Source: Naegleria gruberi
Taxonomy: Eukaryota
Assembly: GCA_000004985.1 (NCBI GenBank)
Contig: GG738891.1
DNA: 64,000 nucleotides
Direction: 5' to 3' (one strand)
Shown here one piece after another: positions 10,263 to 54,137 of the stretch (position 1 is the first letter of the stretch; every line of letters begins with the position of its first letter). The position numbers and the translations under genes were made by a program. Below the pieces are notes generated by a model. That model searched no databases. It had not been told where the DNA came from and saw nothing but the letters and a program-made list of their open reading frames with translations.

Positions 10263-10645
10263 CTAACCAAACCCTTCTAATTTTGATACAAAAAAATTGC
10301 TTTTAGGAGCAATTGGAGAACAATATTTTTCTATTGTTAGAGGAGTTTGTATTATAGTATTATCATTTAATAATTGTAAATGTTGTTTTTTAATTGTTAT
10401 TAAATTATTTTGATATTTATGTATAAAATTAGTAAACAAATTATAACTTTCATTCCATTTAATATCTTCCAAAATACAATCATCTTCATTAATTTCTTTT
10501 ACCTTTCCTTGTCCACATTTTACCATAATGTTATTATTAAATATAATACTTTCAACACTAAAAAAAAAATCATAATATTGTTTAGTTTTTACTTTAATTA
10601 TATCCAAATTAGCTTTGTAATTACTATAAATAAAATCTTCTTTTA
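10263..10645 (-). CDS. 3' (C-terminal) part of a protein-coding gene of unknown function; the 5' part lies in the 13.9-kb gap
   Basis: Track ORF 10263..10607 extends in frame, without a stop, up to the gap edge at 10645. The track's M at 10607 is a TTG, so it is not a real start. The C-terminal sequence is ...KEDFIYSNYKANLDIIKVKTKQYYDFFFSVESIIFNNNIMVKCGQGKVKEINEDDCILEDIKWNESYNLF...SKLEGFG*. I find no recognisable domain. The stop lies about 80 bp from telomere block 3. Confidence 0.45.
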
Positions 10646-16600: not shown

Positions 16601-19600
16601 NNNNNNNNNNNNNNNNNNNNNNNNNNNNNNNNNNNNNNNNNNNNNNNNNNNNNNNNNNNNNNNNNNNNNNNNNNNNNNNNNNNNNNNNNNNNNNNNNNNN
16701 NNNNNNNNNNNNNNNNNNNNNNNNNNNNNNNNNNNNNNNNNNNNNNNNNNNNNNNNNNNNNNNNNNNNNNNNNNNNNNNNNNNNNNNNNNNNNNNNNNNN
16801 NNNNNNNNNNNNNNNNNNNNNNNNNNNNNNNNNNNNNNNNNNNNNNNNNNNNNNNNNNNNNNNNNNNNNNNNNNNNNNNNNNNNNNNNNNNNNNNNNNNN
16901 NNNNNNNNNNNNNNNNNNNNNNNNNNNNNNNNNNNNNNNNNNNNNNNNNNNNNNNNNNNNNNNNNNNNNNNNNNNNNNNNNNNNNNNNNNNNNNNNNNNN
17001 NNNNNNNNNNNNNNNNNNNNNNNNNNNNNNNNNNNNNNNNNNNNNNNNNNNNNNNNNNNNNNNNNNNNNNNNNNNNNNNNNNNNNNNNNNNNNNNNNNNN
17101 NNNNNNNNNNNNNNNNNNNNNNNNNNNNNNNNNNNNNNNNNNNNNNNNNNNNNNNNNNNNNNNNNNNNNNNNNNNNNNNNNNNNNNNNNNNNNNNNNNNN
17201 NNNNNNNNNNNNNNNNNNNNNNNNNNNNNNNNNNNNNNNNNNNNNNNNNNNNNNNNNNNNNNNNNNNNNNNNNNNNNNNNNNNNNNNNNNNNNNNNNNNN
17301 NNNNNNNNNNNNNNNNNNNNNNNNNNNNNNNNNNNNNNNNNNNNNNNNNNNNNNNNNNNNNNNNNNNNNNNNNNNNNNNNNNNNNNNNNNNNNNNNNNNN
17401 NNNNNNNNNNNNNNNNNNNNNNNNNNNNNNNNNNNNNNNNNNNNNNNNNNNNNNNNNNNNNNNNNNNNNNNNNNNNNNNNNNNNNNNNNNNNNNNNNNNN
17501 NNNNNNNNNNNNNNNNNNNNNNNNNNNNNNNNNNNNNNNNNNNNNNNNNNNNNNNNNNNNNNNNNNNNNNNNNNNNNNNNNNNNNNNNNNNNNNNNNNNN
17601 NNNNNNNNNNNNNNNNNNNNNNNNNNNNNNNNNNNNNNNNNNNNNNNNNNNNNNNNNNNNNNNNNNNNNNNNNNNNNNNNNNNNNNNNNNNNNNNNNNNN
17701 NNNNNNNNNNNNNNNNNNNNNNNNNNNNNNNNNNNNNNNNNNNNNNNNNNNNNNNNNNNNNNNNNNNNNNNNNNNNNNNNNNNNNNNNNNNNNNNNNNNN
17801 NNNNNNNNNNNNNNNNNNNNNNNNNNNNNNNNNNNNNNNNNNNNNNNNNNNNNNNNNNNNNNNNNNNNNNNNNNNNNNNNNNNNNNNNNNNNNNNNNNNN
17901 NNNNNNNNNNNNNNNNNNNNNNNNNNNNNNNNNNNNNNNNNNNNNNNNNNNNNNNNNNNNNNNNNNNNNNNNNNNNNNNNNNNNNNNNNNNNNNNNNNNN
18001 NNNNNNNNNNNNNNNNNNNNNNNNNNNNNNNNNNNNNNNNNNNNNNNNNNNNNNNNNNNNNNNNNNNNNNNNNNNNNNNNNNNNNNNNNNNNNNNNNNNN
18101 NNNNNNNNNNNNNNNNNNNNNNNNNNNNNNNNNNNNNNNNNNNNNNNNNNNNNNNNNNNNNNNNNNNNNNNNNNNNNNNNNNNNNNNNNNNNNNNNNNNN
18201 NNNNNNNNNNNNNNNNNNNNNNNNNNNNNNNNNNNNNNNNNNNNNNNNNNNNNNNNNNNNNNNNNNNNNNNNNNNNNNNNNNNNNNNNNNNNNNNNNNNN
18301 NNNNNNNNNNNNNNNNNNNNNNNNNNNNNNNNNNNNNNNNNNNNNNNNNNNNNNNNNNNNNNNNNNNNNNNNNNNNNNNNNNNNNNNNNNNNNNNNNNNN
18401 NNNNNNNNNNNNNNNNNNNNNNNNNNNNNNNNNNNNNNNNNNNNNNNNNNNNNNNNNNNNNNNNNNNNNNNNNNNNNNNNNNNNNNNNNNNNNNNNNNNN
18501 NNNNNNNNNNNNNNNNNNNNNNNNNNNNNNNNNNNNNNNNNNNNNNNNNNNNNNNNNNNNNNNNNNNNNNNNNNNNNNNNNNNNNNNNNNNNNNNNNNNN
18601 NNNNNNNNNNNNNNNNNNNNNNNNNNNNNNNNNNNNNNNNNNNNNNNNNNNNNNNNNNNNNNNNNNNNNNNNNNNNNNNNNNNNNNNNNNNNNNNNNNNN
18701 NNNNNNNNNNNNNNNNNNNNNNNNNNNNNNNNNNNNNNNNNNNNNNNNNNNNNNNNNNNNNNNNNNNNNNNNNNNNNNNNNNNNNNNNNNNNNNNNNNNN
18801 NNNNNNNNNNNNNNNNNNNNNNNNNNNNNNNNNNNNNNNNNNNNNNNNNNNNNNNNNNNNNNNNNNNNNNNNNNNNNNNNNNNNNNNNNNNNNNNNNNNN
18901 NNNNNNNNNNNNNNNNNNNNNNNNNNNNNNNNNNNNNNNNNNNNNNNNNNNNNNNNNNNNNNNNNNNNNNNNNNNNNNNNNNNNNNNNNNNNNNNNNNNN
19001 NNNNNNNNNNNNNNNNNNNNNNNNNNNNNNNNNNNNNNNNNNNNNNNNNNNNNNNNNNNNNNNNNNNNNNNNNNNNNNNNNNNNNNNNNNNNNNNNNNNN
19101 NNNNNNNNNNNNNNNNNNNNNNNNNNNNNNNNNNNNNNNNNNNNNNNNNNNNNNNNNNNNNNNNNNNNNNNNNNNNNNNNNNNNNNNNNNNNNNNNNNNN
19201 NNNNNNNNNNNNNNNNNNNNNNNNNNNNNNNNNNNNNNNNNNNNNNNNNNNNNNNNNNNNNNNNNNNNNNNNNNNNNNNNNNNNNNNNNNNNNNNNNNNN
19301 NNNNNNNNNNNNNNNNNNNNNNNNNNNNNNNNNNNNNNNNNNNNNNNNNNNNNNNNNNNNNNNNNNNNNNNNNNNNNNNNNNNNNNNNNNNNNNNNNNNN
19401 NNNNNNNNNNNNNNNNNNNNNNNNNNNNNNNNNNNNNNNNNNNNNNNNNNNNNNNNNNNNNNNNNNNNNNNNNNNNNNNNNNNNNNNNNNNNNNNNNNNN
19501 NNNNNNNNNNNNNNNNNNNNNNNNNNNNNNNNNNNNNNNNNNNNNNNNNNNNNNNNNNNNNNNNNNNNNNNNNNNNNNNNNNNNNNNNNNNNNNNNNNNN

Positions 19601-22600
19601 NNNNNNNNNNNNNNNNNNNNNNNNNNNNNNNNNNNNNNNNNNNNNNNNNNNNNNNNNNNNNNNNNNNNNNNNNNNNNNNNNNNNNNNNNNNNNNNNNNNN
19701 NNNNNNNNNNNNNNNNNNNNNNNNNNNNNNNNNNNNNNNNNNNNNNNNNNNNNNNNNNNNNNNNNNNNNNNNNNNNNNNNNNNNNNNNNNNNNNNNNNNN
19801 NNNNNNNNNNNNNNNNNNNNNNNNNNNNNNNNNNNNNNNNNNNNNNNNNNNNNNNNNNNNNNNNNNNNNNNNNNNNNNNNNNNNNNNNNNNNNNNNNNNN
19901 NNNNNNNNNNNNNNNNNNNNNNNNNNNNNNNNNNNNNNNNNNNNNNNNNNNNNNNNNNNNNNNNNNNNNNNNNNNNNNNNNNNNNNNNNNNNNNNNNNNN
20001 NNNNNNNNNNNNNNNNNNNNNNNNNNNNNNNNNNNNNNNNNNNNNNNNNNNNNNNNNNNNNNNNNNNNNNNNNNNNNNNNNNNNNNNNNNNNNNNNNNNN
20101 NNNNNNNNNNNNNNNNNNNNNNNNNNNNNNNNNNNNNNNNNNNNNNNNNNNNNNNNNNNNNNNNNNNNNNNNNNNNNNNNNNNNNNNNNNNNNNNNNNNN
20201 NNNNNNNNNNNNNNNNNNNNNNNNNNNNNNNNNNNNNNNNNNNNNNNNNNNNNNNNNNNNNNNNNNNNNNNNNNNNNNNNNNNNNNNNNNNNNNNNNNNN
20301 NNNNNNNNNNNNNNNNNNNNNNNNNNNNNNNNNNNNNNNNNNNNNNNNNNNNNNNNNNNNNNNNNNNNNNNNNNNNNNNNNNNNNNNNNNNNNNNNNNNN
20401 NNNNNNNNNNNNNNNNNNNNNNNNNNNNNNNNNNNNNNNNNNNNNNNNNNNNNNNNNNNNNNNNNNNNNNNNNNNNNNNNNNNNNNNNNNNNNNNNNNNN
20501 NNNNNNNNNNNNNNNNNNNNNNNNNNNNNNNNNNNNNNNNNNNNNNNNNNNNNNNNNNNNNNNNNNNNNNNNNNNNNNNNNNNNNNNNNNNNNNNNNNNN
20601 NNNNNNNNNNNNNNNNNNNNNNNNNNNNNNNNNNNNNNNNNNNNNNNNNNNNNNNNNNNNNNNNNNNNNNNNNNNNNNNNNNNNNNNNNNNNNNNNNNNN
20701 NNNNNNNNNNNNNNNNNNNNNNNNNNNNNNNNNNNNNNNNNNNNNNNNNNNNNNNNNNNNNNNNNNNNNNNNNNNNNNNNNNNNNNNNNNNNNNNNNNNN
20801 NNNNNNNNNNNNNNNNNNNNNNNNNNNNNNNNNNNNNNNNNNNNNNNNNNNNNNNNNNNNNNNNNNNNNNNNNNNNNNNNNNNNNNNNNNNNNNNNNNNN
20901 NNNNNNNNNNNNNNNNNNNNNNNNNNNNNNNNNNNNNNNNNNNNNNNNNNNNNNNNNNNNNNNNNNNNNNNNNNNNNNNNNNNNNNNNNNNNNNNNNNNN
21001 NNNNNNNNNNNNNNNNNNNNNNNNNNNNNNNNNNNNNNNNNNNNNNNNNNNNNNNNNNNNNNNNNNNNNNNNNNNNNNNNNNNNNNNNNNNNNNNNNNNN
21101 NNNNNNNNNNNNNNNNNNNNNNNNNNNNNNNNNNNNNNNNNNNNNNNNNNNNNNNNNNNNNNNNNNNNNNNNNNNNNNNNNNNNNNNNNNNNNNNNNNNN
21201 NNNNNNNNNNNNNNNNNNNNNNNNNNNNNNNNNNNNNNNNNNNNNNNNNNNNNNNNNNNNNNNNNNNNNNNNNNNNNNNNNNNNNNNNNNNNNNNNNNNN
21301 NNNNNNNNNNNNNNNNNNNNNNNNNNNNNNNNNNNNNNNNNNNNNNNNNNNNNNNNNNNNNNNNNNNNNNNNNNNNNNNNNNNNNNNNNNNNNNNNNNNN
21401 NNNNNNNNNNNNNNNNNNNNNNNNNNNNNNNNNNNNNNNNNNNNNNNNNNNNNNNNNNNNNNNNNNNNNNNNNNNNNNNNNNNNNNNNNNNNNNNNNNNN
21501 NNNNNNNNNNNNNNNNNNNNNNNNNNNNNNNNNNNNNNNNNNNNNNNNNNNNNNNNNNNNNNNNNNNNNNNNNNNNNNNNNNNNNNNNNNNNNNNNNNNN
21601 NNNNNNNNNNNNNNNNNNNNNNNNNNNNNNNNNNNNNNNNNNNNNNNNNNNNNNNNNNNNNNNNNNNNNNNNNNNNNNNNNNNNNNNNNNNNNNNNNNNN
21701 NNNNNNNNNNNNNNNNNNNNNNNNNNNNNNNNNNNNNNNNNNNNNNNNNNNNNNNNNNNNNNNNNNNNNNNNNNNNNNNNNNNNNNNNNNNNNNNNNNNN
21801 NNNNNNNNNNNNNNNNNNNNNNNNNNNNNNNNNNNNNNNNNNNNNNNNNNNNNNNNNNNNNNNNNNNNNNNNNNNNNNNNNNNNNNNNNNNNNNNNNNNN
21901 NNNNNNNNNNNNNNNNNNNNNNNNNNNNNNNNNNNNNNNNNNNNNNNNNNNNNNNNNNNNNNNNNNNNNNNNNNNNNNNNNNNNNNNNNNNNNNNNNNNN
22001 NNNNNNNNNNNNNNNNNNNNNNNNNNNNNNNNNNNNNNNNNNNNNNNNNNNNNNNNNNNNNNNNNNNNNNNNNNNNNNNNNNNNNNNNNNNNNNNNNNNN
22101 NNNNNNNNNNNNNNNNNNNNNNNNNNNNNNNNNNNNNNNNNNNNNNNNNNNNNNNNNNNNNNNNNNNNNNNNNNNNNNNNNNNNNNNNNNNNNNNNNNNN
22201 NNNNNNNNNNNNNNNNNNNNNNNNNNNNNNNNNNNNNNNNNNNNNNNNNNNNNNNNNNNNNNNNNNNNNNNNNNNNNNNNNNNNNNNNNNNNNNNNNNNN
22301 NNNNNNNNNNNNNNNNNNNNNNNNNNNNNNNNNNNNNNNNNNNNNNNNNNNNNNNNNNNNNNNNNNNNNNNNNNNNNNNNNNNNNNNNNNNNNNNNNNNN
22401 NNNNNNNNNNNNNNNNNNNNNNNNNNNNNNNNNNNNNNNNNNNNNNNNNNNNNNNNNNNNNNNNNNNNNNNNNNNNNNNNNNNNNNNNNNNNNNNNNNNN
22501 NNNNNNNNNNNNNNNNNNNNNNNNNNNNNNNNNNNNNNNNNNNNNNNNNNNNNNNNNNNNNNNNNNNNNNNNNNNNNNNNNNNNNNNNNNNNNNNNNNNN

Positions 22601-24540
22601 NNNNNNNNNNNNNNNNNNNNNNNNNNNNNNNNNNNNNNNNNNNNNNNNNNNNNNNNNNNNNNNNNNNNNNNNNNNNNNNNNNNNNNNNNNNNNNNNNNNN
22701 NNNNNNNNNNNNNNNNNNNNNNNNNNNNNNNNNNNNNNNNNNNNNNNNNNNNNNNNNNNNNNNNNNNNNNNNNNNNNNNNNNNNNNNNNNNNNNNNNNNN
22801 NNNNNNNNNNNNNNNNNNNNNNNNNNNNNNNNNNNNNNNNNNNNNNNNNNNNNNNNNNNNNNNNNNNNNNNNNNNNNNNNNNNNNNNNNNNNNNNNNNNN
22901 NNNNNNNNNNNNNNNNNNNNNNNNNNNNNNNNNNNNNNNNNNNNNNNNNNNNNNNNNNNNNNNNNNNNNNNNNNNNNNNNNNNNNNNNNNNNNNNNNNNN
23001 NNNNNNNNNNNNNNNNNNNNNNNNNNNNNNNNNNNNNNNNNNNNNNNNNNNNNNNNNNNNNNNNNNNNNNNNNNNNNNNNNNNNNNNNNNNNNNNNNNNN
23101 NNNNNNNNNNNNNNNNNNNNNNNNNNNNNNNNNNNNNNNNNNNNNNNNNNNNNNNNNNNNNNNNNNNNNNNNNNNNNNNNNNNNNNNNNNNNNNNNNNNN
23201 NNNNNNNNNNNNNNNNNNNNNNNNNNNNNNNNNNNNNNNNNNNNNNNNNNNNNNNNNNNNNNNNNNNNNNNNNNNNNNNNNNNNNNNNNNNNNNNNNNNN
23301 NNNNNNNNNNNNNNNNNNNNNNNNNNNNNNNNNNNNNNNNNNNNNNNNNNNNNNNNNNNNNNNNNNNNNNNNNNNNNNNNNNNNNNNNNNNNNNNNNNNN
23401 NNNNNNNNNNNNNNNNNNNNNNNNNNNNNNNNNNNNNNNNNNNNNNNNNNNNNNNNNNNNNNNNNNNNNNNNNNNNNNNNNNNNNNNNNNNNNNNNNNNN
23501 NNNNNNNNNNNNNNNNNNNNNNNNNNNNNNNNNNNNNNNNNNNNNNNNNNNNNNNNNNNNNNNNNNNNNNNNNNNNNNNNNNNNNNNNNNNNNNNNNNNN
23601 NNNNNNNNNNNNNNNNNNNNNNNNNNNNNNNNNNNNNNNNNNNNNNNNNNNNNNNNNNNNNNNNNNNNNNNNNNNNNNNNNNNNNNNNNNNNNNNNNNNN
23701 NNNNNNNNNNNNNNNNNNNNNNNNNNNNNNNNNNNNNNNNNNNNNNNNNNNNNNNNNNNNNNNNNNNNNNNNNNNNNNNNNNNNNNNNNNNNNNNNNNNN
23801 NNNNNNNNNNNNNNNNNNNNNNNNNNNNNNNNNNNNNNNNNNNNNNNNNNNNNNNNNNNNNNNNNNNNNNNNNNNNNNNNNNNNNNNNNNNNNNNNNNNN
23901 NNNNNNNNNNNNNNNNNNNNNNNNNNNNNNNNNNNNNNNNNNNNNNNNNNNNNNNNNNNNNNNNNNNNNNNNNNNNNNNNNNNNNNNNNNNNNNNNNNNN
24001 NNNNNNNNNNNNNNNNNNNNNNNNNNNNNNNNNNNNNNNNNNNNNNNNNNNNNNNNNNNNNNNNNNNNNNNNNNNNNNNNNNNNNNNNNNNNNNNNNNNN
24101 NNNNNNNNNNNNNNNNNNNNNNNNNNNNNNNNNNNNNNNNNNNNNNNNNNNNNNNNNNNNNNNNNNNNNNNNNNNNNNNNNNNNNNNNNNNNNNNNNNNN
24201 NNNNNNNNNNNNNNNNNNNNNNNNNNNNNNNNNNNNNNNNNNNNNNNNNNNNNNNNNNNNNNNNNNNNNNNNNNNNNNNNNNNNNNNNNNNNNNNNNNNN
24301 NNNNNNNNNNNNNNNNNNNNNNNNNNNNNNNNNNNNNNNNNNNNNNNNNNNNNNNNNNNNNNNNNNNNNNNNNNNNNNNNNNNNNNNNNNNNNNNNNNNN
24401 NNNNNNNNNNNNNNNNNNNNNNNNNNNNNNNNNNNNNNNNNNNNNNNNNNNNNNNNNNNNNNNNNNNNNNNNNNNNNNNNNNNNNNNNNNNNNNNNNNNN
24501 NNNNNNNNNNNNNNNNNNNNNNNNNNNNNNNNNNNNNNNN
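10646..24540. other. Assembly gap (13895 N)
   Basis: N run. It probably hides the 5' ends of the flanking genes, including further EGF repeats of the gene starting at 24541. Confidence 0.95.
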
Positions 24541-27500
24541 AATGTTTTGGATTGAATTCCAGTGATAATTCAGTTTGTTCAAGTCATGGTCAATGTATTA
24601 ATGCTGACACTTGTCAATGTAATACTGGATGGTTTGGAAGTAACTGCTCAATTCACTCCTGCAATGGAACTAGTTCACAAGATTTAAAACACGTCTGCAA
24701 TGGAAATGGAGTATGTATTCAAATGGACAAGTGTGATTGTAATAATGGATGGTTTGGATCTGATTGTTCAATTCATTCTTGTAATGGAACCAGTTCACAA
24801 GATTTACACAGTGTTTGTAATAATGGTAATGGTCAGTGCATTGGAACAGAGTTGTGTTTGTGTAACCAAAATTGGGCTGGTCAGTTCTGTACTATTCCTA
24901 AATGTTTTGGCGTTATTTCTACAGACGCTACAGTTTGCTCTACTCATGGTAATTGTACTGATATTAATACTTGTCAATGTAATACAGGTTGGTTTGGAAC
25001 TGATTGTTCAATTCACTCCTGCAATGGAACTAGTTCACAAGATTTAAAACACGTCTGCAATGAGGAAATGGAGTATGTGTTCAAATGGACAAGTGTGATT
25101 GTAATAAGGGATGGTTTGGATCTGATTGTTCAATTCATTCTTGTAATGGAACCAGTTCACAAGATGAGCAAAATGTTTGTAATGGAGGAAGAGGTCAATG
25201 TATTGGCACTGATATTTGCTCATGTAATGAAACATGGACAGGTCAATTCTGTGAAATTCCAAAATGTTTTGGATTGAATTCCAGTGATAATTCAGTTTGT
25301 TCCAGTCATGGTCAATGTATTAATGCTGACACTTGTCATTGTAATAAGGGATGGTTTGGTAGTAACTGCTCAATTCATTCGTGTAATGGAACTAGTTCAC
25401 AAGATGTGCAAAACGTTTGTAATGGAGGAAATGGTCAGTGCATTGGAACAGATTTGTGTTTGTGTAACCAAAATTGGGCTGGTCAGTTCTGTACTATTCC
25501 TAAATGTTATGGCGTTATTTCTACAGACGCTACAGTTTGCTCTACTCATGGTAACTGTACTGATATTAATACTTGCCAATGTAATACAGGTTGGTTTGGT
25601 CCATTATGTAGTATTCACTCCTGCAATGGAACTAGTTCACAAGATTTAAAACACGTCTGCAATGGTGGTAATGGAGTATGCATTCAAATGGATAAGTGTG
25701 ATTGTAAATCTGGTTGGACAGGCCAGTTCTGTGAAATTCCAACATGTTTCGGATTAGCTTCAACTGCTAAAAAAGTGTGTGCTGGTCATGGAGATTGCAT
25801 GAGCTCTGATAAATGCTCTTGTAATAATGGATGGTTTGGATCTGATTGTTCAATTCATTCTTGTAATGGAACTAGTTCACAAGATGAGCAAAATGTTTGT
25901 AATGGAGGAAGAGGTCAATGTATTGGCACTGATATTTGCTCATGTAATGAAACATGGACAGGTCAATTCTGTGAAATTCCTAAATGTTTTGGATTGAATT
26001 CAAGTGATAATTCAGTTTGTTCCAGTCATGGTCAATGTATTAATGCTAACACTTGTCATTGTAATAAGGGATGGTTTGGTAGTAACTGCTCAATTCATTC
26101 ATGTAATGGAACAAGTTCACAAGATGTACAAAACGTTTGTAATGGAGGAAATGGTGAGTGCATTGGAATAGAGTTGTGTTTGTGTGACCAAAATTGGNNN
26201 NNNNNNNNNNNNNNNNNNNNNNNNNNNNNNNNNNNNNNNNNNNNNNNNNNNNNNNNNNNNNNNNNNNNNNNNNNNNNNNNNNNNNNNNNNNNNNNNNNNN
26301 NNNNNNNNNNNNNNNNNNNNNNNNNNNNNNNNNNNNNNNNNNNNNNNNNNNNNNNNNNNNNNNNNNNNNNNNNNNNNNNNNNNNNNNNNNNNNNNNNNNN
26401 NNNNNNNNNNNNNNNNNNNNNNNNNNNNNNNNNNNNNNNNNNNNNNNNNNNNNNNNNNNNNNNNNNNNNNNNNNNNNNNNNNNNNNNNNNNNNNNNNNNN
26501 NNNNNNNNNNNNNNNNNNNNNNNNNNNNNNNNNNNNNNNNNNNNNNNNNNNNNNNNNNNNNNNNNNNNNNNNNNNNNNNNNNNNNNNNNNNNNNNNNNNN
26601 NNNNNNNNNNNNNNNNNNNNNNNNNNNNNNNNNNNNNNNNNNNNNNNNNNNNNNNNNNNNNNNNNNNNNNNNNNNNNNNNNNNNNNNNNNNNNNNNNNNN
26701 NNNNNNNNNNNNNNNNNNNNNNNNNNNNNNNNNNNNNNNNNNNNNNNNNNNNNNNNNNNNNNNNNNNNNNNNNNNNNNNNNNNNNNNNNNNNNNNNNNNN
26801 NNNNNNNNNNNNNNNNNNNNNNNNNNNNNNNNNNNNNNNNNNNNNNNNNNNAATAATGAAGGAAATGGATTACTGTTCCAAATGACCTCTCCAAATCATT
26901 TCACATCCTTAAATGTTGATTGTAACAATTTATTAGATTCTTCAAGTATTTCCTCATTTGGTTCAAATGTAGTTTGTAGATATTCTAATAAGACATCCAA
27001 TGATTTTATTATTGAATTGGGAACTGATAATTCTATTCAAGTTGATCAAGAAATTTTATTGAATAGAAATGTGTTTAATAGAAACAAATTAGGAAATGAT
27101 TATCAATCATTCAAAATTGGAAATGCTGAAAATCCCATTCCACCAACAATTTTAATTTCTCAAAAAACAACATATTCAAGTTGTGAAAATATTCTATTGG
27201 ATGCAAGTGAAAGTTATTCCACAGATGGAAAACAAATTTCCTATAAATGGGAAATTGTATCTTCCAACATGATGACACTTCCAAACAATAATTCAAGCAA
27301 ACTGTCAATCACCTATGACAGTATAAATGCTGGAAGTCATACTTTCAAATTGACAACTACAAGCCAAATTTTGAAAACATCCTCATCTAAGCAAGTCACA
27401 TTCCAAAAATTGAATTATGCAACACCTGTCATTTCTATTGAAGGAAGTGACAGCCTTTCACTTTCAACAAGCTCATTGCCTTTGATTGTAAGAAAATTAA

Positions 27501-29932
27501 TCACATTACCTTCTTGTTTACCTTCAAAATCTGAAATTATTGTAAAATGGGAATATTTGAGTGGAACTGGAATGGAATATCAAGTTGACTCTTACAATAA
27601 CTTGAAGATTGTTAAATTTAATGATTTGACACAGTTAACACATCAAGTTAAAGTTTCATCATATTTGAAAGGCAAAGAAGATCAAATTTCATCAGTCAAT
27701 CTTAATATCCAAATGACAGCTAGACCACTAGTTGTTAACTTGATCCAAATTGAATCAACAATTGACCAAGTAATAATTGAGATCGAAGAAATTGATTCTG
27801 ATTTGCAAACTATTCCATTCGACAGAGAATGGTCCACCAATAATTTGAATAACAATGACAACATCTTACAATATCTATCATCTATCAAGAATAATACATT
27901 AACAATTACAAAATCATTAGTGAACGGTGCTTCTCAATTCGACATTTCATTAAGGTCAAGTAAGGTTTCCAGATATTCCACTTCAACTCTCTCCATTTTA
28001 TTCCCAGAATCTCCTACACAAATTCCACCTTCAATCACACCAGCTAACTCACCACCATCAAAACTGAATAAGGGAACTTTATTAAGCGTACAAAGTATTG
28101 TTTCGAGTGCAAGTAACAATATTATTAGAGAATGGACAATGAATGGACAATCTATTCCTTCAGATTTGACAAGTAATATGAGAATGCAACTTTCCGAGTC
28201 TGATGAATTAATTTTGGACACATCTTCTTTGACAGAAGGTTCTACTTATCAAATTTCTTTCAAAGTTACTAATGTTGATTCTTTGTTGTCTGCTTCATTG
28301 AATCATTCATTTGTAATTAACAAATCACCAAAACCATGTGACTGTCAAGTGTCACCTTTGAGTGGTATTGCAATGACAACAATATTTACTTTCAATTGTC
28401 CAAAATGTCAAAACGATCAGAATAGTAATACTTTTGAATATGGTTTTATTGATGACTTTTCAAAATCCAACTTTCCACTTTCTAAAACAGAAGAATTATA
28501 TCAAAAACTTCCAATGCCAAATTCTGGAAACAAATTAGATCTTTATGTCAAGGTAATTGATTCATTGACAGGATCTAGCTCCATAACAACCAAACAAGTT
28601 ACCATTTCTCTTCCAGTTGTCAAAAGTTTAGCAGAAATCAAAGCATTAACGTCTTCTTGGAACCAAATAGCAACATTGGCTCCTGTTGGTGATTATCAAC
28701 GAAGTGTTTTCAATACTGCAACCATTTCTAGAACAATGAATTTATTATTTAACAGTATAAGTTCAAAGAGAGATTTTTGTAATGGAAATGGACAATTTAA
28801 GGATGGAAAATGTGTTTGTAATTTTGGATTTACAACAAGAAATTGTAAATGGTCCACTGAAGATTTTGAATTTATTCAATCTTTAATTAGAGATTTATTG
28901 AATGATTTTATGGGTTCAAGTCAAATCATGACAACCGCTTCAGAATCAACAAATAGAAATTACATTACAAATTTATTATTTGGATTGAATTCAATTTCAC
29001 AAAATTCTGAATATCTTTCTAACCAAATGGTCAACTCTAGTTTAATTTTATTGAGAGATGCTTTGGTATCAGTTCAATCAAGTACTGCCTTTGTTCTGTC
29101 TAGAGGAGATTTGGTCAACTTGCAAAATATTTTGAACTTGCAAGAAAATTTAATGGATGGTGAAAAATTATTGCAAACTGTTGAATTATTAGGACAAGTT
29201 TTATTGAGAAATGTTTTAATTGGTCAAACACCATTTAAATTTGAAACTAACAGTTATTTGACAGTTTTAAACAAACATTTCAAGAATCAAATGAATGGAA
29301 TGAAATTCGAAAGTGAGATGGTGAATATCACGTTGCCATGGAACATTTCATCTTTCTTGAAAACTAATTCAATCAAGTCACCAATCAAGTACAGATGGAA
29401 TATTCAAAAAAATACAGACACCATTGCAATTGCAAATCAACCTGGAAAGATAATATCAATCAATTCAGTTGCGAATAGTTTACAACTTGATCCTTCACCT
29501 CAATCTTATTCGAAATACTTATTCGACATTGAGATGAAACAATACGACAGTCAGGCAGCTTATGTTTGTGCCAACATTGGATCAGCATCATTGGAAACTG
29601 ATTGTTCCATTTCTATCAAGAATAACCAAATAGCAACTTGTGAATGCTCTTCATTAGGATATAATCTTGTAATTCTTGAATACAAATCCATTGAAAATCA
29701 TGTATCAACCTCCTCTTCATCAAATTCAAATATAATTGTCAAAAAACCTCCAACGAGCAATCCATTAATGTGGTTATTATTGTTACTAGTCCTCATTCCA
29801 CTTACTGCCCTACTAATTGCAGTAATTGTATGGTTTGTAGTAAAGAAACTGGGTAAAGATAAGAATAATACAAGAAATCCATACATGCAAACACAAGAAA
29901 GCAGTTCTACAATTGAATTGAAGCATGTTTAA
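24541..29932 (+). CDS. Very large EGF-repeat surface protein (5' end in gap). It has tandem tenascin/laminin-type EGF modules, a long Ser/Thr/Asn-rich extracellular region, a membrane-proximal EGF and a GPS-like Cys motif, one C-terminal TM helix and a short cytoplasmic tail
   Basis: The open frame runs from the gap edge. About 12 near-identical EGF units (C-x-C-N-x-G-W-x-G-x-x-C-S-I-H-S-C-N-G-T-S-S-Q-D...) are repeated almost exactly at the DNA level. An apparent frameshift near 25062 (caatgaggaaatgg versus caatggaggaaatgg in sister repeats) splits the track ORFs 10410..25277 and 25085..29932; it is most simply a 1-nt deletion error. An internal gap lies at 26198-26851. After the repeats come CNGNGQFKDGKCVCNFGFTTRNCKW (EGF) and ATCECSSLGYNLVILEY (GPS-like), then the TM helix LMWLLLLLVLIPLTALLIAVIVWFVV, and the stop at 29930-29932. 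Confidence 0.8.
26198..26851. other. Assembly gap (654 N) inside the EGF-repeat gene
   Basis: N run. The reading frame is plausible on both sides of it. Confidence 0.9.
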
Positions 29933-40614: not shown

Positions 40615-42809
40615 ATGGATTCGCCCTTCTTTTCATCATCCCTTTCCCAGATGATATCGAAAAATGAACAATTACATCAACAACAACATTCTATGAGAAA
40701 CAACAATAACAATAATACTACTAACAGCATACTGAATAATAGTAATAATAATAATAATAATTGGAATGCTAATAATTTGATGAATCAATTTTCGGTCAAT
40801 CAAAATAGCCTTCAACAAAATCAACAACAACAGTTAGTCATTCCTTCCTTTAGTGATTTACTTTCAATGGGTAGTAATAATAATATAATGTCGAGTAGTA
40901 GTAATAACATGTTCATTAGTCAAATGTCAACAAATAATAGTAATAATAATGTAAATCTTGGCAGAAGAGCAAGTGTAGTTTCGAATAGTAGTAATACGAA
41001 TATGAATAATAACATTGGTAGTAGCAGTGCACCACAAGTACTTTCTTCTTCATCTTCTACGAATAGTAATGAAGCAACTAGCTCTTTTCAAGTTTCGAAT
41101 AATGCAACTGGAGAAGAATCATCACAGTTTCACCCAATTTCGTGTATTAACTGCAGAAAGGTACACAAAAAGTGCGATAAACAATTGCCTAGTTGTGCCA
41201 AATGTGTAGCTAAAGGAGCCACTTGTATAGTAAGTAATTAGTTCAATTGTTTCCATTCTATAAGAAATATTAGTATGAAAATCCAAAGAAAAGAGGAAAA
41301 GGGTCATTAGCTTACCCACACAAAAAGAAGAAACTTGATATTGTTCAACAAGAGGATGATGCCACGACCACTGTTATTCATCAAGAAAGTCCTTCTGCTG
41401 CAAACAAATCTCAGAGTGGATCTAGCTCAACAATTCAAAGTAATCAACTATATTCATTGAGAGTAGTGAATTTAGTGGAATTGTACTTTACTTTTATTTG
41501 TGCTGGACATCCATTCATTAGAAAGGCCAAGTTGGAGTATTTCATTAATAACTTTTTGATTTATTTTGAAAATGAGGTGAACATTGATCAGATTCATTTT
41601 GCTCCAAATGAATTCATTGAAAGCATTGGAGAATTGAAATGTATATATGCATTTTACTTGTCAGTACTGGCACTAGGTCATCAATTATTGGCAAATACAG
41701 AAACATCAGATGGAATTGCTAAACTATGTGAAGTTGAAATTGCAAAATTATCAATTGAATATTATTTGAATTTCTATTGGGCTTGCTCCACATTCCATCT
41801 CTGTATTTATTATAATGGAAGTGGCGTGCTTCAAAAAGCAAGATATTATGTTAGATTTGCTGATTTTTATTGTTTAGAATTCCCTAACATGACAGATATT
41901 ATTCAAAAAAATCTAGTCAAGAGGAAAGTCTTCTCAGTTGGGTATTATGGAGATTCTATCAATGAATTTGCAGTATTTTTCAAAAACATGCCAAATGTAT
42001 TTGAAATTACATCAAATCTCAAGTTGGAAAATATAGTTCTCCCAAATACATTAGAGTATTTACAATCAGCAAACGTTACTCCACAGAATTTCTTACTTTT
42101 CAGACAAGTGATTGATTTTTCTTTTGCAGTCACTACTCAATACAGAACAGAGCTAATGAAAAAGATGACAGATTGCCACTCCCCTCTATTTTTCACTGGA
42201 CAAATAGTTTTGAGATTAATGGTAATGAATGGCTTTAAGCTTTTATTCCTTTTAAAGGTTCCAGAGCATGCCAAACAGATGGCTGAAGAGGTGGCACTCA
42301 GAATTACCTTATTGGCAGATCATGATGTTTTCACATATGCTAATGGAGATGTTTCAATTAGTATCAAGACTGCCTCACGATTCCATTTGGATATTTGTAA
42401 AGATATTGAAGAAGGAAAGAGAACGAATAATGCAACATTGAAAACATCCAACGGAAAGGGATTGAATGTTGACTATTTTTCAATTTTGGAAAAGAATCTC
42501 AAAGCAATGAAAATTCATACCAAGAAATACGTACGTGTTCGCAATGAATGCAGTGGAATGATGAAAGAAATGGAGGAAATGTTGGAAAGACATAGACAGC
42601 GAAGAAATTTAGCAATTACTTTGGATAATCATTGCCAATCATGGATAAGTCAGGGCGATCAGTTCCCAGACCAACAAGATCCTGTTTTGTCATCTGTACT
42701 GACCTACCTCAATGAATTGAATCAACAAATGCCAAAGCAAATGACAACAACACCTCAGGAAGAATTTGATTCAGAATGGAGAGATATTTTTACTGATTCT
42801 CTTCTCTAA
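40615..42809 (+). CDS. Zn(II)2Cys6 binuclear-cluster DNA-binding protein (Gal4-type) with a long C-terminal regulatory region; two exons
   Basis: Exon 1 spans 40615..41229. It has an Asn/Ser-rich N-terminus and then CINCRKVHKKCDKQLPSCAKCVAKGATCI (C-x2-C-x6-C-x6-C-x2-C-x6-C). A 44-nt intron (41230 GTAAGT ... AG 41273) sits in phase 0. Exon 2 spans 41274..42809 and continues YENPKKRGKGSLAYPHKKKK... A basic linker after the cluster is typical of this family. Track ORFs 40615..41241 and 41457..42809 are parts of it. Confidence 0.7.
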
Positions 42810-45321
42810 TAGATTCCCAATATCTCTTTACAATGAGATACCATTTGTTTCACAACTATATCTTCAGGATTATCCCTTTTAAAAGTTTCGAATAATGTAA
42901 GAGCCTTCTCGATATCATTTTTAAAGAATAGAGAGCATGCCTCATTATAAATCTTCCATTTTTGCTTCCTTTCCTGTTCTCTCAATTCATATAACCATTC
43001 ATCTGCTGCATGTTGCGTAGAATCACCCAATTCGTATACTTTCTGTTCGAATTTCAATGTCAAATCGTTTTCCAATAATTCAGAGCTGTGTGGCAATAGA
43101 GAGCTATACTCATCAACCATCAATGATTGAATTTCAGCAATGAATCTTGTATGATATAATATCTCAACTGCTTTGTGCACTTCACTGCTAATTAGAATTT
43201 CTAAATTATAATATTTGGTCAATTGTAACATTTTTGAAAGACTCCAACGAGCATTGGTGATGAGAGTGAAATTTTTCACATCATTGGTTCCTATATTTCC
43301 ACACAGCACTTCCTGCGTAGTAACAGCTACTCTAAATCTGATATTTTCTATTAGATTCTTGAAGCTATCATTTCTAATTAACTTGTTGGAAGCCATTAAC
43401 CATTTCTTATCTCGAGTAATTTTTAGTTTTTCAATAATTGACCTGGCTGCTTGAACTCCCTTCTCCTGGTGTTTAGGGTGGTTAGCTGCTGTGTTAAAAG
43501 TGATGGAAATTGAATCATTTTCAAAATGTCCTAACAAGCCACCTTGAATTTTAGTGACACATGTCAATTGGTCGAAAATATCTGTCAATAAATGGATACT
43601 TTCTGAAGGAGGCATTTGAGATATCAGCTCTGAGAACTCATCTATCAATACACAAACAATAGTTACATGTTTCTTATCCAAATATAACGAAAATAATTGC
43701 TTTGATGTCAGCTGTCCTTTAAATAAATTAACAGTGCTTCTGATTGATGTCCTCATCGAGTCCATAAGTGAAGGATTGACAGCCACTGAGTCGTGTTCAG
43801 CGCTTACTTTCAAATCTCTTGATTTCTTCATAATTTCCATCTTTTCCACTTGATTCAACAAGTGTTGTGGAATAAACGAACGAAACAGACGAATCTGATT
43901 CGTCATTTGAACGAATTGCTTTTGTAATGTTCTCACCTCTGAGAATTTACTCGTTTTAATATCCAAACTTTCCATATCCATTCTCGAAACTGCCTGAAAT
44001 TGTTCAATTAAATTGTGGAATGGTTTTACAATTTTTACAGAAACAAAAATGGAAAGTGAAACTGCAATGCAAATTATTAAACAAGTTCCAATGATTGAAA
44101 CTATTAATCCAATTACCAAAGATCCAATAAAGTTCCATTGAGGTATTGAAAGTACAAAAATCCAATCCACTCCAGTTTCGGCACAGAATCGATTAATGTA
44201 AACGAAATCGTCCAAATGTTCGATTGTGATTGCATTGTTGCAGGGTAAACTTTTAAAGTTATTTCGAGTTTCTTCCAAAATTCTATGAGATAACTGATTA
44301 ATCTTGTCATCTTTGATTGTAAAAATAGTATTTCTCTTGACAGAGCTGTCAGAATTAATTTCTGTAATTTTTAAATCTTTTCTGTCAACTGTTACAAAAA
44401 TTTCAATAAGAAAGTTGAAAAATTAAACATACCAGCTACGAAATATTGCTTATCAGTTTCAAAAATAAAACTCCTCGATCCATCAATTGATCCAATTTTG
44501 GAAATTAAAATGTCAGAAAATCCACTGACAGTCATGTCAAATCCCAGATAATAATCAAATGAATTATCCTTCGATTTGTTAAAGGAATAGCAATATAACA
44601 AGGTAAAGAACGTGTCAATGTTTGGCGTTGTGACATCTACATAACTTCTCGAAAAAACTAATTGATTTGGATTGGCATTACAGCTGTCAGTTAAATCTGA
44701 CAGATCGACAGCAGGTATTACACTTGTAGGTTGATTATCCAATCTCCTTTTACAATACGGATATTTTTCCAAATCAGAATCACATTCATAAAAATACTGA
44801 GCTACCAATGACATGTTTAACCAATTGACTGACGTGCCAGAATAGAAAATTCCCAAAGCATTTCCACTAGGCTCTCCTATATACACCGTAACCACAAATT
44901 CCTTTCTCATTTTCCATTCAGATAAGAATGATTGATAAGTGACTTGTTCGATTTGTTTCGAATTTTGAAAATCTAATAAATATAACAATTGTCCTTTCAT
45001 TACATCCAAGGAAATCGTTGCTTCGACCACTGACTTGGTAACAGACGAAACTATATCAGAAAATTGAGCTTCCCTTTGACCAATCGTTCCTTTGATGGCA
45101 TTCGGAAGTAAAGAACTCATCCAGACAAGTGACAGGACGAGAATACTTGATATAACGAGCAGGGAAAGTAGTAGAATGATACAAAATTTGATAGAGCTAA
45201 AGAATTGGTAGGGTTCATGATTAGTTTCTTGAGTTTCGAATAATGATGAAGGAATATTTTGAGTTTCTTGAGTTTCTTGAGTTTCGGAAAGATTAGGTGT
45301 TATTTGATTAATCTTGACCAT
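42806..45321 (-). CDS. Receptor-type class III nucleotidyl (adenylyl/guanylyl) cyclase homology-domain protein: TM1, extracellular domain, TM2, cyclase domain
   Basis: Exon 1 spans 45321..44433. It encodes an N-terminal cytoplasmic stretch with ETQ repeats, a TM helix FCIILLLSLLVISSILVLSLVWM and an ectodomain of about 250 aa. A 44-nt intron (GTATGT near 44432 to AG near 44389) is in phase 1. Exon 2 runs to the stop at 42806. It encodes a second TM helix (FIGSLVIGLIVSIIGTCLIICIAVSLSIFV) and a cyclase homology domain: VTIVCVLIDEFSEL ... RFRVAVTTQEVLCGNIGTNDVKNFTLITNARWSLSKMLQLTKYYNLEILISSEV. Confidence 0.65.
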
Positions 45322-45565: not shown

Positions 45566-46329
45566 TTAATGACGTCCAACAATACACTCAGCAATTGCTT
45601 CTGTCAATTCTGCAATATCTTCAGGTGCTCTACCAGAAAAAATAAACAAATCAGATCTGACAACTGTTGAATCTCTGTATTCAGCTCCAGCATTTTCCAA
45701 ATCTTGACGTATGGCAGGTGCTCCTGTCACTTTCTTTCCCTTAATCAATCCAGCATTGATCAATAATGAAGAAGACATGTCAATTGTGCCAATCATGTTT
45801 CCATAATTGTATGTTTTTTGAATTAGAGAAATAGCATCGCTGTCAGTTCTCATTGTGGCAGTTGACCAAGCTCCTCCTGCAATAAATAAGGCATCATATT
45901 GCAAAAGGTATGCTTCCTTGAATGTCTTGTTGATAGAAACAACTCTGTTTGCACGAACATATTGACATGAAACTATTTTTCTGTCAACTGTCCAACTTGG
46001 TCCAACAATGTCGACAGTTGCACCTCTGCTTGTCAAATAAATGTATGGGAATGTTAAATCTACCTCTTCAAAACAATGTGATGCCATAATTGCAACACGT
46101 GCTCCTTGAAGAATTGTTGGAAAATGCACAATTGGCTAATTTGACGTGTTAGATTAATGACAGATGTGTTAAAACTTACTTGTGAAATATTGTAAGCAAC
46201 TCCTCTGAGTCCTAACTTATCTTCTTCATCAAGAGAACTAATCAGAGGGAAAATATTGTTAATATTCTGAGCAGAAATGCATACTGTCAAGAATAGGAAC
46301 GCAACAATGATAAAAGTGAGTTTTGACAT
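45566..46329 (-). CDS. Secreted DJ-1/PfpI-family (class I glutamine-amidotransferase-like fold) protein, two exons
   Basis: Exon 1 spans 46329..46180 and carries the signal peptide MSKLTFIIVAFLFLTVCISAQ. A 44-nt intron (GTAAGT 46179 ... AG 46136) is in phase 0. Exon 2 spans 46135..45566: PIVHFPTILQGARVAIMASHCFEEVDLTFPYIYLTSRGATVDIVGP...DALFIAGGAWS...MIGTIDMSSSLLI... This aligns with the DJ-1 core, but the nucleophile-elbow position reads Asp (IGTIDMS), not Cys. Confidence 0.55.
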
Positions 46330-46468: not shown

Positions 46469-47980
46469 TTATTCTTTCACATTGTCAAAATCCTTGATAG
46501 AATAAATGGAACAAGTATCTAATATGAAATCTCGCATGTAGAGAAAGTTTTTAGCATATTTTAGGCATTTCTTATTGATTCGAATAGCCTTTCTTATAAA
46601 TGCCTCGTTAGTCGAATAATCTGATTCAATTAAGGAAATGGCAAAGTCGTCATCGTTCTTGATTGCTTCCAACATGATATCTTCATCACATCTTGCTTTT
46701 TCTAACTCTTCATATCTCAATGAATGAAATTTCGTCAAGTTTCTAATTTTTCCATAAATAACTTCCTTTGACGAACCAATCGATTGGTGTTTTCTCATCC
46801 AAAAATCAATTCCAACACGTGGAATCCAAATATCTTGTTCATTATCTACTTGTTGTGGAAGATTAGTTGTCAGTTGTTGTTGAACTTGAAGAGAAGCAAA
46901 TTTCAAAGCATCTAGATTTTGGTCAACTGCACTTTTTACAATATCATAATCTGATTTGAATTTCTCAAGAGTAAATTCTAAAGCAAGAGGGTGGTTTCTA
47001 ATAGCTGTTAAATTAATGAGCTCGCTGTCTAGAAGAGGAGGTTTAACAAACTCTAACGCTCGTCCGTCTTGGTTGACTGCGATCATTACAATTGTTTCGT
47101 TGAAACTCTTGATGGAATCATGAGCATATTCTAATTCTAACCCATTTTTCTTGACCAGTTCAGTGACGATGAGTTCATTATTATTGTGAGCTTTCAGATA
47201 TTTTAGAAATTTCGGATAAACTTTCTTCTTGATGCAATTCAATACGAAATTCACTTCCTTCACTAGAGGAGTAATTTCCAGAATGGAAGGTTCTTTCAAT
47301 ACAGCTCTAGTGACTAATTCTTCATTAGTTTTCAATGAAACATCCACAAATCTAATGCAGTTTCCATTTAGTTTTACACATTTCAAAGCAAAATCAAAGT
47401 TTCGTCTCAAATCTTCATGAGCAAATGTCAAATTTACAGGTTTAATCTTCACTGCCTCATAAATCATCTGCTCATCCCTACAAAACTCTTCATTCATTTC
47501 GAATATTTCCTTAACTAATTCTCCTCCACCACTTTCCAAAGCTTTCAATGCAACTATTCGATTCTTCTTTAATTTTTCACTCAAAAATCTATACGAATCA
47601 CCCTCACTCTTCACAGCAGCCAACCCAAACTCAAAATCATCTTTAAACTCAACTGGCATTTCTCTAATAAACAACCCAAATTGACCCAAACATTCCTTTA
47701 TAAAAATTCGATCCGTTATCAAATCTTGTGGAATTTTCTTCATCAAATACTTGGGTCCATATATTCTAGTGAGAGAAAACGCCAAAATCTTTGTGTATTT
47801 CATGGTTTGTAGTTCGTGTGATGATTGTTGGAAAACTGATCGGAGGAGAAAACTCTTGAAAGTTTGATCGAGAATGAGTTGAACGGAAGTTTCGTCCAAA
47901 TCATCTTCTTGATGTGAAATCATTTTTTTTGAAGCTTGAATTTGTTGAATTAAACACGGTGTTATTAGTTGGACTAACAT
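46469..47980 (-). CDS. DUF4116-repeat protein
   Basis: 503-aa ORF with ATG at 47980. It contains repeated about 35-aa units of the DUF4116 type: FEFGLAAVKSEGDSYRFLSEKLKKNRIVALKALESGG, FDFALKCVKLNGNCIRFVDVSLKTNEELVTRAVLKEP, and IVMIAVNQDGRALEFVKPPLLDSELINLTAIRNHPLALEF...YDIVKSAVDQNLDALKFASLQ. Confidence 0.5.
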   Translation of the reverse strand: MLVQLITPCLIQQIQASKKMISHQEDDLDETSVQLILDQTFKSFLLRSVFQQSSHELQTMKYTKILAFSLTRIYGPKYLMKKIPQDLITDRIFIKECLGQFGLFIREMPVEFKDDFEFGLAAVKSEGDSYRFLSEKLKKNRIVALKALESGGGELVKEIFEMNEEFCRDEQMIYEAVKIKPVNLTFAHEDLRRNFDFALKCVKLNGNCIRFVDVSLKTNEELVTRAVLKEPSILEITPLVKEVNFVLNCIKKKVYPKFLKYLKAHNNNELIVTELVKKNGLELEYAHDSIKSFNETIVMIAVNQDGRALEFVKPPLLDSELINLTAIRNHPLALEFTLEKFKSDYDIVKSAVDQNLDALKFASLQVQQQLTTNLPQQVDNEQDIWIPRVGIDFWMRKHQSIGSSKEVIYGKIRNLTKFHSLRYEELEKARCDEDIMLEAIKNDDDFAISLIESDYSTNEAFIRKAIRINKKCLKYAKNFLYMRDFILDTCSIYSIKDFDNVKE

Positions 47981-48208
47981 TCTTTCTATTTATAAGCAAT
48001 TTCCTATAATTTCATGTTCATAATCTTGAATGAACACTTTACAATAATTTACAATTCTGTTTTATAAAAAAACGAAAAATTTCAATATATTAAATTGTTT
48101 AATCGTACTTCCTCCTAGTGCGTAGTGCTATTCCGTTGTTTGATCATCCTTTTGGTTCAAAATATCCCGCTTCAAGGATTCTTTATTCGAAACTCAATTA
48201 CAAAAAAA

Positions 48209-48964
48209 ATGTCAACACTTCAAAATCTCTGCAAACACTATCTGACAGCTCTTGATTCTGCCTTTCAACAAGCACTTGATTATTATCAAGAAATCAACGA
48301 TCAAACAAATGGTTGGGTCAATTACAAAACTACACCTGAACAAGCTCAGTATTTCATTAACAAGAAGAAACATTCGTATTGGATTTGGATGGGAGAAATG
48401 AAGAATGTGGAGATTCCAGAAAGTATTGCCAAAAATTCAAGAGATTTGATCAAGTATTTGGATGAGGAAAGTGAACGAAAGTTGTGGGATGAAGAATTTG
48501 TATCAGGTGTAAAAATTCATGACAAGATTGAAAAGAATTGTAACGAAACTTGTAAGAACGGAAGTGATCATTCTGATTTTAATGTTTATTATAGAGTTTT
48601 CACAGTAGGATCCAAAGCAGTTTCGAATAGAGAATTCGTCATTTCTAGAAATATTTATCAAGATCCAAAGTTGGAAAATGTAACTTGGATGTGCAATCAA
48701 ACACCTTTAGATTTTCCAGATTATGAACACAAGAAGGCACCTACAAATTCATCATGTGTTAGAGGAACAGTTCATGTCACTGCTTGGAGATTCGAACAGT
48801 TGAAATCTTCCATTTCTGGAAAATCTGTTTTTAACATTTCTGTAATTAGTCATTCTGAACCTGGTGGATGGGTGACTGCTTCTTTTTTCAATAATGGAGC
48901 AGGAGATCGTCCAGCATCAGCCGTTGTGAGATTAGTCAAATATTTACAAAGTAAACAAAACTAG
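48209..48964 (+). CDS. START/Bet v1-like (SRPBCC) lipid-binding domain protein
   Basis: The true ATG is at 48209 (MSTLQNLCKHY...); the track start at 48125 is a GTG. The C-terminal half has a START-like pattern: SNREFVISRNIYQDP...VTWMCNQTPLDFPD...SCVRGTVHVTAWRFEQL...ISHSEPGGWVTASFFNNGAGDRPASAVVRLVKYL. Confidence 0.45.
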   Translation: MSTLQNLCKHYLTALDSAFQQALDYYQEINDQTNGWVNYKTTPEQAQYFINKKKHSYWIWMGEMKNVEIPESIAKNSRDLIKYLDEESERKLWDEEFVSGVKIHDKIEKNCNETCKNGSDHSDFNVYYRVFTVGSKAVSNREFVISRNIYQDPKLENVTWMCNQTPLDFPDYEHKKAPTNSSCVRGTVHVTAWRFEQLKSSISGKSVFNISVISHSEPGGWVTASFFNNGAGDRPASAVVRLVKYLQSKQN

Positions 48965-54086: not shown

Positions 54087-54137
54087 NNNNNNNNNNNNNN
54101 NNNNNNNNNNNNNNNNNNNNNNNNNNNNNNNNNNNNN
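54087..54137. other. Assembly gap (51 N) joining the truncated membrane-protein gene copy to a PARP 3' fragment
   Basis: N run. Confidence 0.9.

Follow-up and report, generated by a model that had tools for sequence, protein, structure and literature searches.

A putative non-catalytic receptor of Naegleria gruberi with a dCache-type ectodomain, a HAMP-like module and a degenerate class III cyclase homology domain

Gene and gene model

The 64,000-nucleotide stretch of contig GG738891.1 analysed here (assembly GCA_000004985.1; the whole stretch is called the window) comes from Naegleria gruberi; it is eukaryotic DNA of ~32% GC content with four long runs of N. Its minus strand carries, at 42806-45321, a gene for a predicted transmembrane receptor that ends in a cyclase homology domain (CHD), and this receptor is the subject of the present analysis. 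The closest public model is the 814-amino-acid N. gruberi protein P0001, which NCBI names 'adenylate/guanylate cyclase [Naegleria gruberi]' and whose residue numbers are used throughout.

The interval corresponds exactly to two minus-strand open reading frames (ORFs), 44392..45321 and 42806..44278, which one GT-AG intron joins into an uninterrupted 2.47-kb coding sequence; the assembly gaps fall outside the gene. With an intron of 44 nucleotides (nt) the product has 823 amino acids and is 99% identical to P0001. In the NCBI model the acceptor lies 27 nt further downstream, giving a 71-nt intron and a protein without the residues VDRKDLKIT (window 44362-44388). Most of 16 aligned homologues have residues opposite this segment, and the 44-nt intron is preferred for that reason; 27 coding bases, i.e. 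nine residues, are probably missing from the public model.

Domain architecture

An AlphaFold model built from a 54-sequence family alignment (A1) has a mean predicted local distance difference test score (pLDDT) of 83.6 and replaces a single-sequence model with pLDDT 39.4. Scores below 50 occur only at residues 1-42 and 486-515. From the amino terminus, the order is a tail, a first transmembrane helix (TM1) that runs on into a long stalk helix, an alpha/beta ectodomain, a second transmembrane helix (TM2), a HAMP-like module, a helix with the transducer motif, a linker predicted to be disordered, the CHD and a helical C-terminus (Table 1). The HAMP-like assignment comes from two model helices with a connector between them, from the sequence KIVKPF that follows TM2 and from a weak profile match to TM2 plus HAMP of NarQ (E 0.095); there is no Pfam HAMP match. 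At the C-terminal end, four helices span residues 753-811 with pLDDT ~90.

An earlier reading of the locus made without database searches (the sequence-only reading) had proposed the order TM, ectodomain, TM and CHD. Hydropathy and the structural model bear this order out, although the HAMP-like module, the transducer motif, the linker and the C-terminal module had been missed.

Table 1. Features of the receptor gene and of its neighbours in the window
Feature	Coordinates	Strand	Remarks
Whole gene	42806..45321	-	Two exons; homologue alignment backs the 44-nt intron
Exon 1	45321..44433	-	Junction reading
Intron	44432..44389	-	44 nt, canonical GT..AG
Exon 2	44388..42806	-	Stop codon included
N-terminal cytoplasmic tail, residues 1-44	45190..45321	-	Low complexity; predicted disordered, pLDDT <50 at 1-42
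TM1, residues ~45-68	45118..45189	-	Kyte-Doolittle maximum 3.04; helix in the AlphaFold model
Ectodomain, residues 69-371	44138..45117	-	Stretch contains the intron; stalk helix and two PDC modules (dCache fold)
TM2, residues ~372-405	44036..44137	-	Kyte-Doolittle maximum 2.96; continuous model helix 372-422
HAMP-like two-helix module, residues ~406-458	43877..44035	-	KIVKPF...SEVRTLQKQFVQM; model helices 372-422 and 437-458
Cyclase-transducer-like helix, residues ~455-484	43799..43876	-	F-R-S-F-I-P-Q-H-L-L; motif in canonical relatives too (FRKFVP...)
Variable linker, residues ~485-520	43691..43798	-	Predicted disordered, pLDDT <50 at 486-515
Degenerate class III CHD, residues 521-745	43016..43690	-
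Leu535	43646..43648	-	At the first metal-binding Asp position; three alignments
Asp537 (D of LIDEF)	43640..43642	-	+2 from the first metal-binding Asp column; three alignments
His575	43526..43528	-	In place of the substrate-specifying Lys; canonical relatives: Lys in 10/11
Asp579	43514..43516	-	Second metal-binding Asp, kept (FENDS); F-E-N-D-S opposite F-[IV]-G-D-[AC]
Trp669	43244..43246	-	In place of the transition-state Asn; canonical relatives: Asn in 11/11
Lys673	43232..43234	-	In place of the transition-state Arg; canonical relatives: Arg in 10/11
C-terminal module, residues 746-814	42809..43015	-	D-E-W-L-Y-E-L helix 42983..43003, Trp765, three TPR-like helices
DJ-1/PfpI family protein	45566..46129	-	Immediate upstream neighbour
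Protein of seven DUF4116 repeats	46469..47980	-	Upstream neighbour
START-domain protein	48125..48964	+	Upstream neighbour
ORF with REJ, PKD-like and EGF-like domains	26900..29932	+	Polycystin/REJ-type extracellular module; upstream end lost in an N run

Cyclase homology domain

Does the intracellular domain belong to the class III cyclases? Taken singly, the sequence scores 16.4-17.9 bits against Pfam Guanylate_cyc (PF00211), below the gathering score of 21.9, and matches PDB sequences marginally (phmmer, E ~0.15); 15 of its 54 relatives match the Pfam model at E<=0.01. Despite this sub-threshold score, the family profile finds the PDB cyclases Cya2 (E 7.7e-14) and CyaB (E 3.9e-13), and tblastn with canonical cyclases matches at this locus alone within the window (E ~1e-13). 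The model has the beta-alpha-beta-beta-alpha-beta fold of a CHD and can be superposed on solved cyclases. Because family profile and canonical tblastn both match strongly, homology to class III cyclases is considered secure, and the family call of the sequence-only reading holds at the level of the family profile.

The catalytic positions were located by three independent alignments, i.e. phmmer against PDB sequences (OaPAC, CyaB), MAFFT of 87 relatives including 11 canonical ones, and the family profile against CyaB and Cya2. In all three the canonical S-D-I-R-G-F-T lines up with V-L-I-D-E-F-S, which places Leu535 at the position of the first metal-binding Asp (Asp1); the secondary structure of the AlphaFold model agrees with this register, since strand beta1 ends at 536 and helix alpha1 begins at 539. 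Among the features expected of a competent class III cyclase, the second metal-binding Asp (Asp2) is present, whereas Asp1, the Lys/Glu and the Asn/Arg are not. In an eight-position shorthand, P0001 reads L-D-H-D-R-T-W-K and the canonical set D-x-K-D-R-T-N-R. As judged from these alignments, four canonical catalytic residues are lost in this protein.

The sequence-only reading had taken the Asp of LIDEF for Asp1, which instead falls at +2, and had seen the degeneracy at the second metal position, at KIQGGLLGHF, where Asp2 is in fact retained directly after that segment. It was right that one metal-binding Asp is absent; the absent residue is Asp1 rather than Asp2, and three more positions (His575, Trp669 and Lys673) are changed. 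The ordinary cyclase for which it had allowed, with both Asp residues recovered by proper alignment, did not emerge.

Could Asp537 have taken over from Asp1 in the family at large? This candidate was rejected, as only 31 of 76 members have an acidic residue at +2. Five of the 11 canonical relatives carry an Asp at +3 and also keep Asp1; since canonical enzymes have such residues besides Asp1, a nearby acidic residue is no proof of a relocated ligand.

Ectodomain

The sequence-only reading considered the ectodomain unrecognised and possibly a novel ligand-binding module. Structure prediction gives a different answer: between the two transmembrane helices lie a long N-terminal helix, a membrane-distal and a membrane-proximal PDC module, the arrangement of a dCache domain. 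The ectodomain thus belongs to a known sensor fold, though as a divergent example, and is no novel module. How divergent can be seen from the profile searches. The protein itself has no match to Pfam dCache_1 or MCP-like_PDC_1 at E<=10, although three of 54 relatives match MCP-like_PDC_1, and the lone PDB match of the ectodomain family profile (A2) is the sub-threshold one to the dCache structure 7k5n (E 0.11). The alignment with 7k5n is centred on W-T-E-P-Y-x-D, which reads F-S-R-S-Y-V-D in P0001. The Y-x-D and G-x-D strands are present. Of the amino-acid-binding motif of dCache_1AA sensors (Y..R.W..Y..D), the R-x-W-Y segment has no counterpart in this sole sequence alignment, W-Y of 7k5n facing residues that are not conserved in the family.

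Identity to the bacterial dCache domains of PctD (7prq), McpU (6f9g), Tlp3 (4wy9), PctA (9koo) and the A. caviae diguanylate cyclase (7k5n) is only 10-12%. Unlike these, the Naegleria ectodomain has two eukaryote-style, conserved putative disulfide pairs: the Cys pairs C180/C190 and C337/C356 are nearly invariant. With two N-glycosylation sequons, the pairs fit an extracellular location.

A family of degenerate cyclase homology domains

Word-indexed homologue searches return almost nothing besides the protein itself. HMMER, run exhaustively over 1.84 billion representatives of 50%-identity clusters, returned 1867 matches with E<=1e-3, of which 238 reach E<=1e-10; the closest non-self relative is ~40% identical. 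Catalytic columns were scored on 87 matches that cover the whole CHD, out of the best 150. Asp1 is lost in 77 of the 87, its column reading Y/K/H/L/R/F. Asp2 is retained by only 31 of these 77, and the complete catalytic set by none; the Lys column holds S/N/H/A/Q and the Asn column H/K/Q/E/Y. Ten of the 11 canonical relatives, by comparison, have D..K..D..R..T..N..R or differ from it at one position. All catalytic columns thus drift freely over a set of at least 76 related clusters (50% identity), whose members come from Naegleria, Willaertia and environmental eukaryotes. Catalytic degeneracy, as read from these columns, is a trait of the whole family and no accident of a single gene.

Named members belong to N. 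gruberi (P0002, P0009, P0012, P0027, P0189), N. lovaniensis, N. fowleri and Willaertia magna, and most of the N. gruberi paralogues are labelled 'predicted protein'. Relatives with the full canonical set are found in Willaertia, Pharyngomonas, Planoprotostelium and Lentisphaerota bacteria.

Two variants of the design deserve mention. A distant branch from environmental, eukaryotic metagenome contigs (P0059, P0060, P0070, P0079, P0091) has equally degenerate columns, some of its members bearing ankyrin repeats at the N-terminus; the family thus reaches beyond the sequenced Naegleria and Willaertia genomes. In P0046, P0052 and P0055, from N. lovaniensis and others, a helical NIT ectodomain, of the nitrate/nitrite-sensing type, replaces dCache on the same chassis of HAMP, degenerate CHD and DEWLYEL. 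Sensor domains have thus been swapped within the family.

What has been conserved while the active site drifted? The family retains the fold-core motifs of the CHD, i.e. G651-N-x-G654, K659, F661-T662, R702 and Y-E-L-G at 739-742, and N586 and H594 are kept in 72 and 71 of 76 members, respectively. P0001 holds every family-conserved position, including DEWLYEL at 750-756 and W765. Mean pairwise identity among 15 full-length members is highest in HAMP (0.40) and the C-terminal module (0.38), followed by the CHD (0.32), the ectodomain (0.25-0.31) and the linker (0.17).

Two features set the family apart from canonical sensor cyclases. In 10 of the 11 canonical relatives, 29 residues separate the transducer motif F-[IV]-P from the Asp1 column, and 30 do so in the eleventh; the separation is 74 in P0001 and 57-107 in the family, the extra segment being of low complexity and predicted to be disordered. 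This variable insert would interrupt the rigid coupling of helix to CHD that is typical of canonical enzymes. The other feature is a C-terminal tail that is missing from canonical relatives: a motif D-E-W-[ML]-Y-E-L, then K-E-K, a Trp and TPR-like helices. The motif residues are conserved to differing degrees among the 76 members (D 64, E 57, W 64, Y 45, E 53, L 48), the Trp is found in 51, and single members match TPR-type Pfam models.

Functional interpretation

The reading proposed here, to which a probability of about 0.7 is given, is that the protein is a non-catalytic dCache-HAMP receptor whose signal is relayed through TM2 and HAMP, with the pseudo-CHD and the tail serving as a protein-interaction output. 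The plan would be of bacterial type (dCache sensor, transmembrane helix, HAMP, class III CHD), but with a CHD that is presumably no longer an enzyme. An extracellular small-molecule ligand may bind the dCache domain, and, in a dimer, the signal would run via TM2 and HAMP, which is well conserved. No cAMP or cGMP would be made by this protein. Its output might consist in an altered arrangement or accessibility of the pseudo-CHD and the C-terminal helical module, the two together acting as a scaffold or regulatory surface towards a putative partner. The wider proposal is that a large family of dCache-HAMP receptors in Naegleria, Willaertia and environmental eukaryotes has turned its CHD non-catalytic, uncoupled it from the transducer and acquired a new DEWMYEL/TPR-like effector with an output other than cyclic nucleotides; we would put this generalization at even odds.

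Several points weigh against the reading for P0001. The loss of cyclase activity is deduced from sequence, the scaffold output is proposed only from conservation of the C-terminal module, and dimerisation is assumed by analogy with the biology of HAMP, dCache and CHD proteins. Asp579, Arg640 and Thr662 are all kept, and Asp537, at +2, might conceivably reach the metal site after a local rearrangement.

The retained residues can also be read in terms of pairing. Class III enzymes build their active sites where the two protomers of a dimer meet, and the protein could be a heterodimer partner or a dominant-negative regulator of a competent dCache/HAMP cyclase paralogue, joined to it via TM, HAMP and CHD, an arrangement that would resemble C1/C2 of animal adenylyl cyclases, alpha/beta of soluble guanylyl cyclase or the heterodimeric rhodopsin-cyclases of chytrids. 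HAMP is the region best conserved among paralogues, and canonical proteins of Heterolobosea with D-x-K-D-R-T-N-R, Willaertia P0124 and Pharyngomonas P0111, share HAMP, transducer and CHD core. Yet P0001 could not contribute a complete half-site: the metal half reads L/D/R and the other half H/T/W/K, so that both composite sites would be defective and pairing could only damp activity. Moreover, the catalytic columns of the family drift freely instead of complementing one another, and the variable disordered linker speaks against tight coupling. A search for a partner CHD, which the sequence-only reading had suggested for the genome, was run on the readable window, with all large ORFs inspected and tblastn carried out with family and canonical CHDs; none was found, ~23 kb of the window being N, and neighbourhood carries little weight in a eukaryote. 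Of the two roles offered by the sequence-only reading, the pseudo-cyclase is therefore favoured, and that of partner is judged unlikely.

Less probable still is an active cyclase that works with non-canonical residues, for example with Asp537 and Asp579 as metal ligands and His575 for base recognition, and possibly with an unusual substrate specificity. The NCBI name would agree with it, but that annotation is automatic and domain-based, and the Pfam score of the single sequence falls short of the threshold. All of Asp1, Lys, Asn and Arg are substituted, and the replacing positions are themselves not conserved, as the +2 and Lys columns show. Might the gene simply be a decaying pseudogene or a mis-assembled model without function? 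The lost catalytic residues, a nearest relative at ~40% identity and the large assembly gaps in the window would agree with this. The coding sequence with its GT-AG intron is intact, however, with the gaps outside it; the folded domains are modelled with confidence, every family-conserved residue is kept, and conservation is highest in HAMP and at the C-terminus. Decay is thus a very improbable explanation. The non-catalytic receptor remains the preferred reading, and the NCBI name probably over-states the function of P0001, just as the label 'predicted protein' under-states most of its N. gruberi paralogues.

Comparison with known systems

The nearest comparison is with class III adenylyl cyclases of bacteria and protists that combine a periplasmic sensor, TM, HAMP and CHD. 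Canonical relatives of this kind are P0124 of Willaertia, P0111 of Pharyngomonas, P0125 of Planoprotostelium and P0148 of Lentisphaerota, P0125 being labelled 'adenylate/guanylate cyclase with integral membrane sensor'; the CHD of P. aeruginosa CyaB (3r5g) serves as structural reference. These have D..K..D..R..T..N..R, where P0001 has L..H..D..R..T..W..K, and they have neither the long disordered spacer nor the DEWMYEL/TPR-like tail. Protist receptor-type cyclases likewise combine an extracellular sensor with an intracellular CHD, and those of trypanosomes share the lineage-specific expansion. They are, however, active homodimers with full catalytic residues and CHASE-like or periplasmic-binding-protein-like ectodomains, without HAMP or a DEWMYEL tail. 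Other CHDs have kept the fold and lost catalysis, and these too are presumably reused for binding or regulation; they are soluble regulators in bacteria or else pseudo-symmetric halves of active enzymes, whereas here the apparently dead CHD occupies the output end of a dCache-HAMP receptor that spans the membrane, in an expanded family of eukaryotic paralogues.

Naegleria is often cited for an unusually large set of membrane adenylate/guanylate cyclases. More than 100 cyclases were reportedly counted in the Naegleria genome paper. One pangenome paper gives the Naegleria repertoire as 'at least 81 cyclases' (PMC9928731). A search of the literature outside the original genome paper found no account of a heterolobosean family of receptor-type pseudo-cyclases; the reports on Naegleria cyclases that it located concern repertoire counts and BLUF photoactivated cyclases only. 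If a large subfamily with dCache sensors is catalytically dead, the capacity of these amoebae, the pathogen N. fowleri among them, for cAMP and cGMP signalling has been over-counted; a good part of Naegleria's 'expanded cyclase repertoire' would make no cyclic nucleotides, and another receptor output would be left to discover. The family may also be viewed as a natural experiment in the conversion of a dimeric enzyme domain to a pseudo-enzyme, in which residues and spacing were lost and a C-terminal module was gained. It supplies, in addition, eukaryotic dCache receptors suited to ligand screening.

Surroundings of the gene

The runs of N lie at 1635-9763, 10646-24540, 26198-26851 and 54087-54137. 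Very long ORFs that span them (e.g. 10410..25277) are artefacts of gaps or masking. Among the upstream neighbours, the DJ-1/PfpI, DUF4116 and START proteins, none has an evident tie to the receptor. On the other side, an ORF on the plus strand at 40615-41241 encodes a poly-Asn/Gln tract and a fungal-type Zn(2)-Cys(6) cluster, and a second plus-strand ORF of 450 amino acids, at 41457-42809, has no Pfam match; the two are probably exons of a single transcription-factor gene. This gene is convergent with the cyclase-like gene, and their stop codons overlap by 4 nt.

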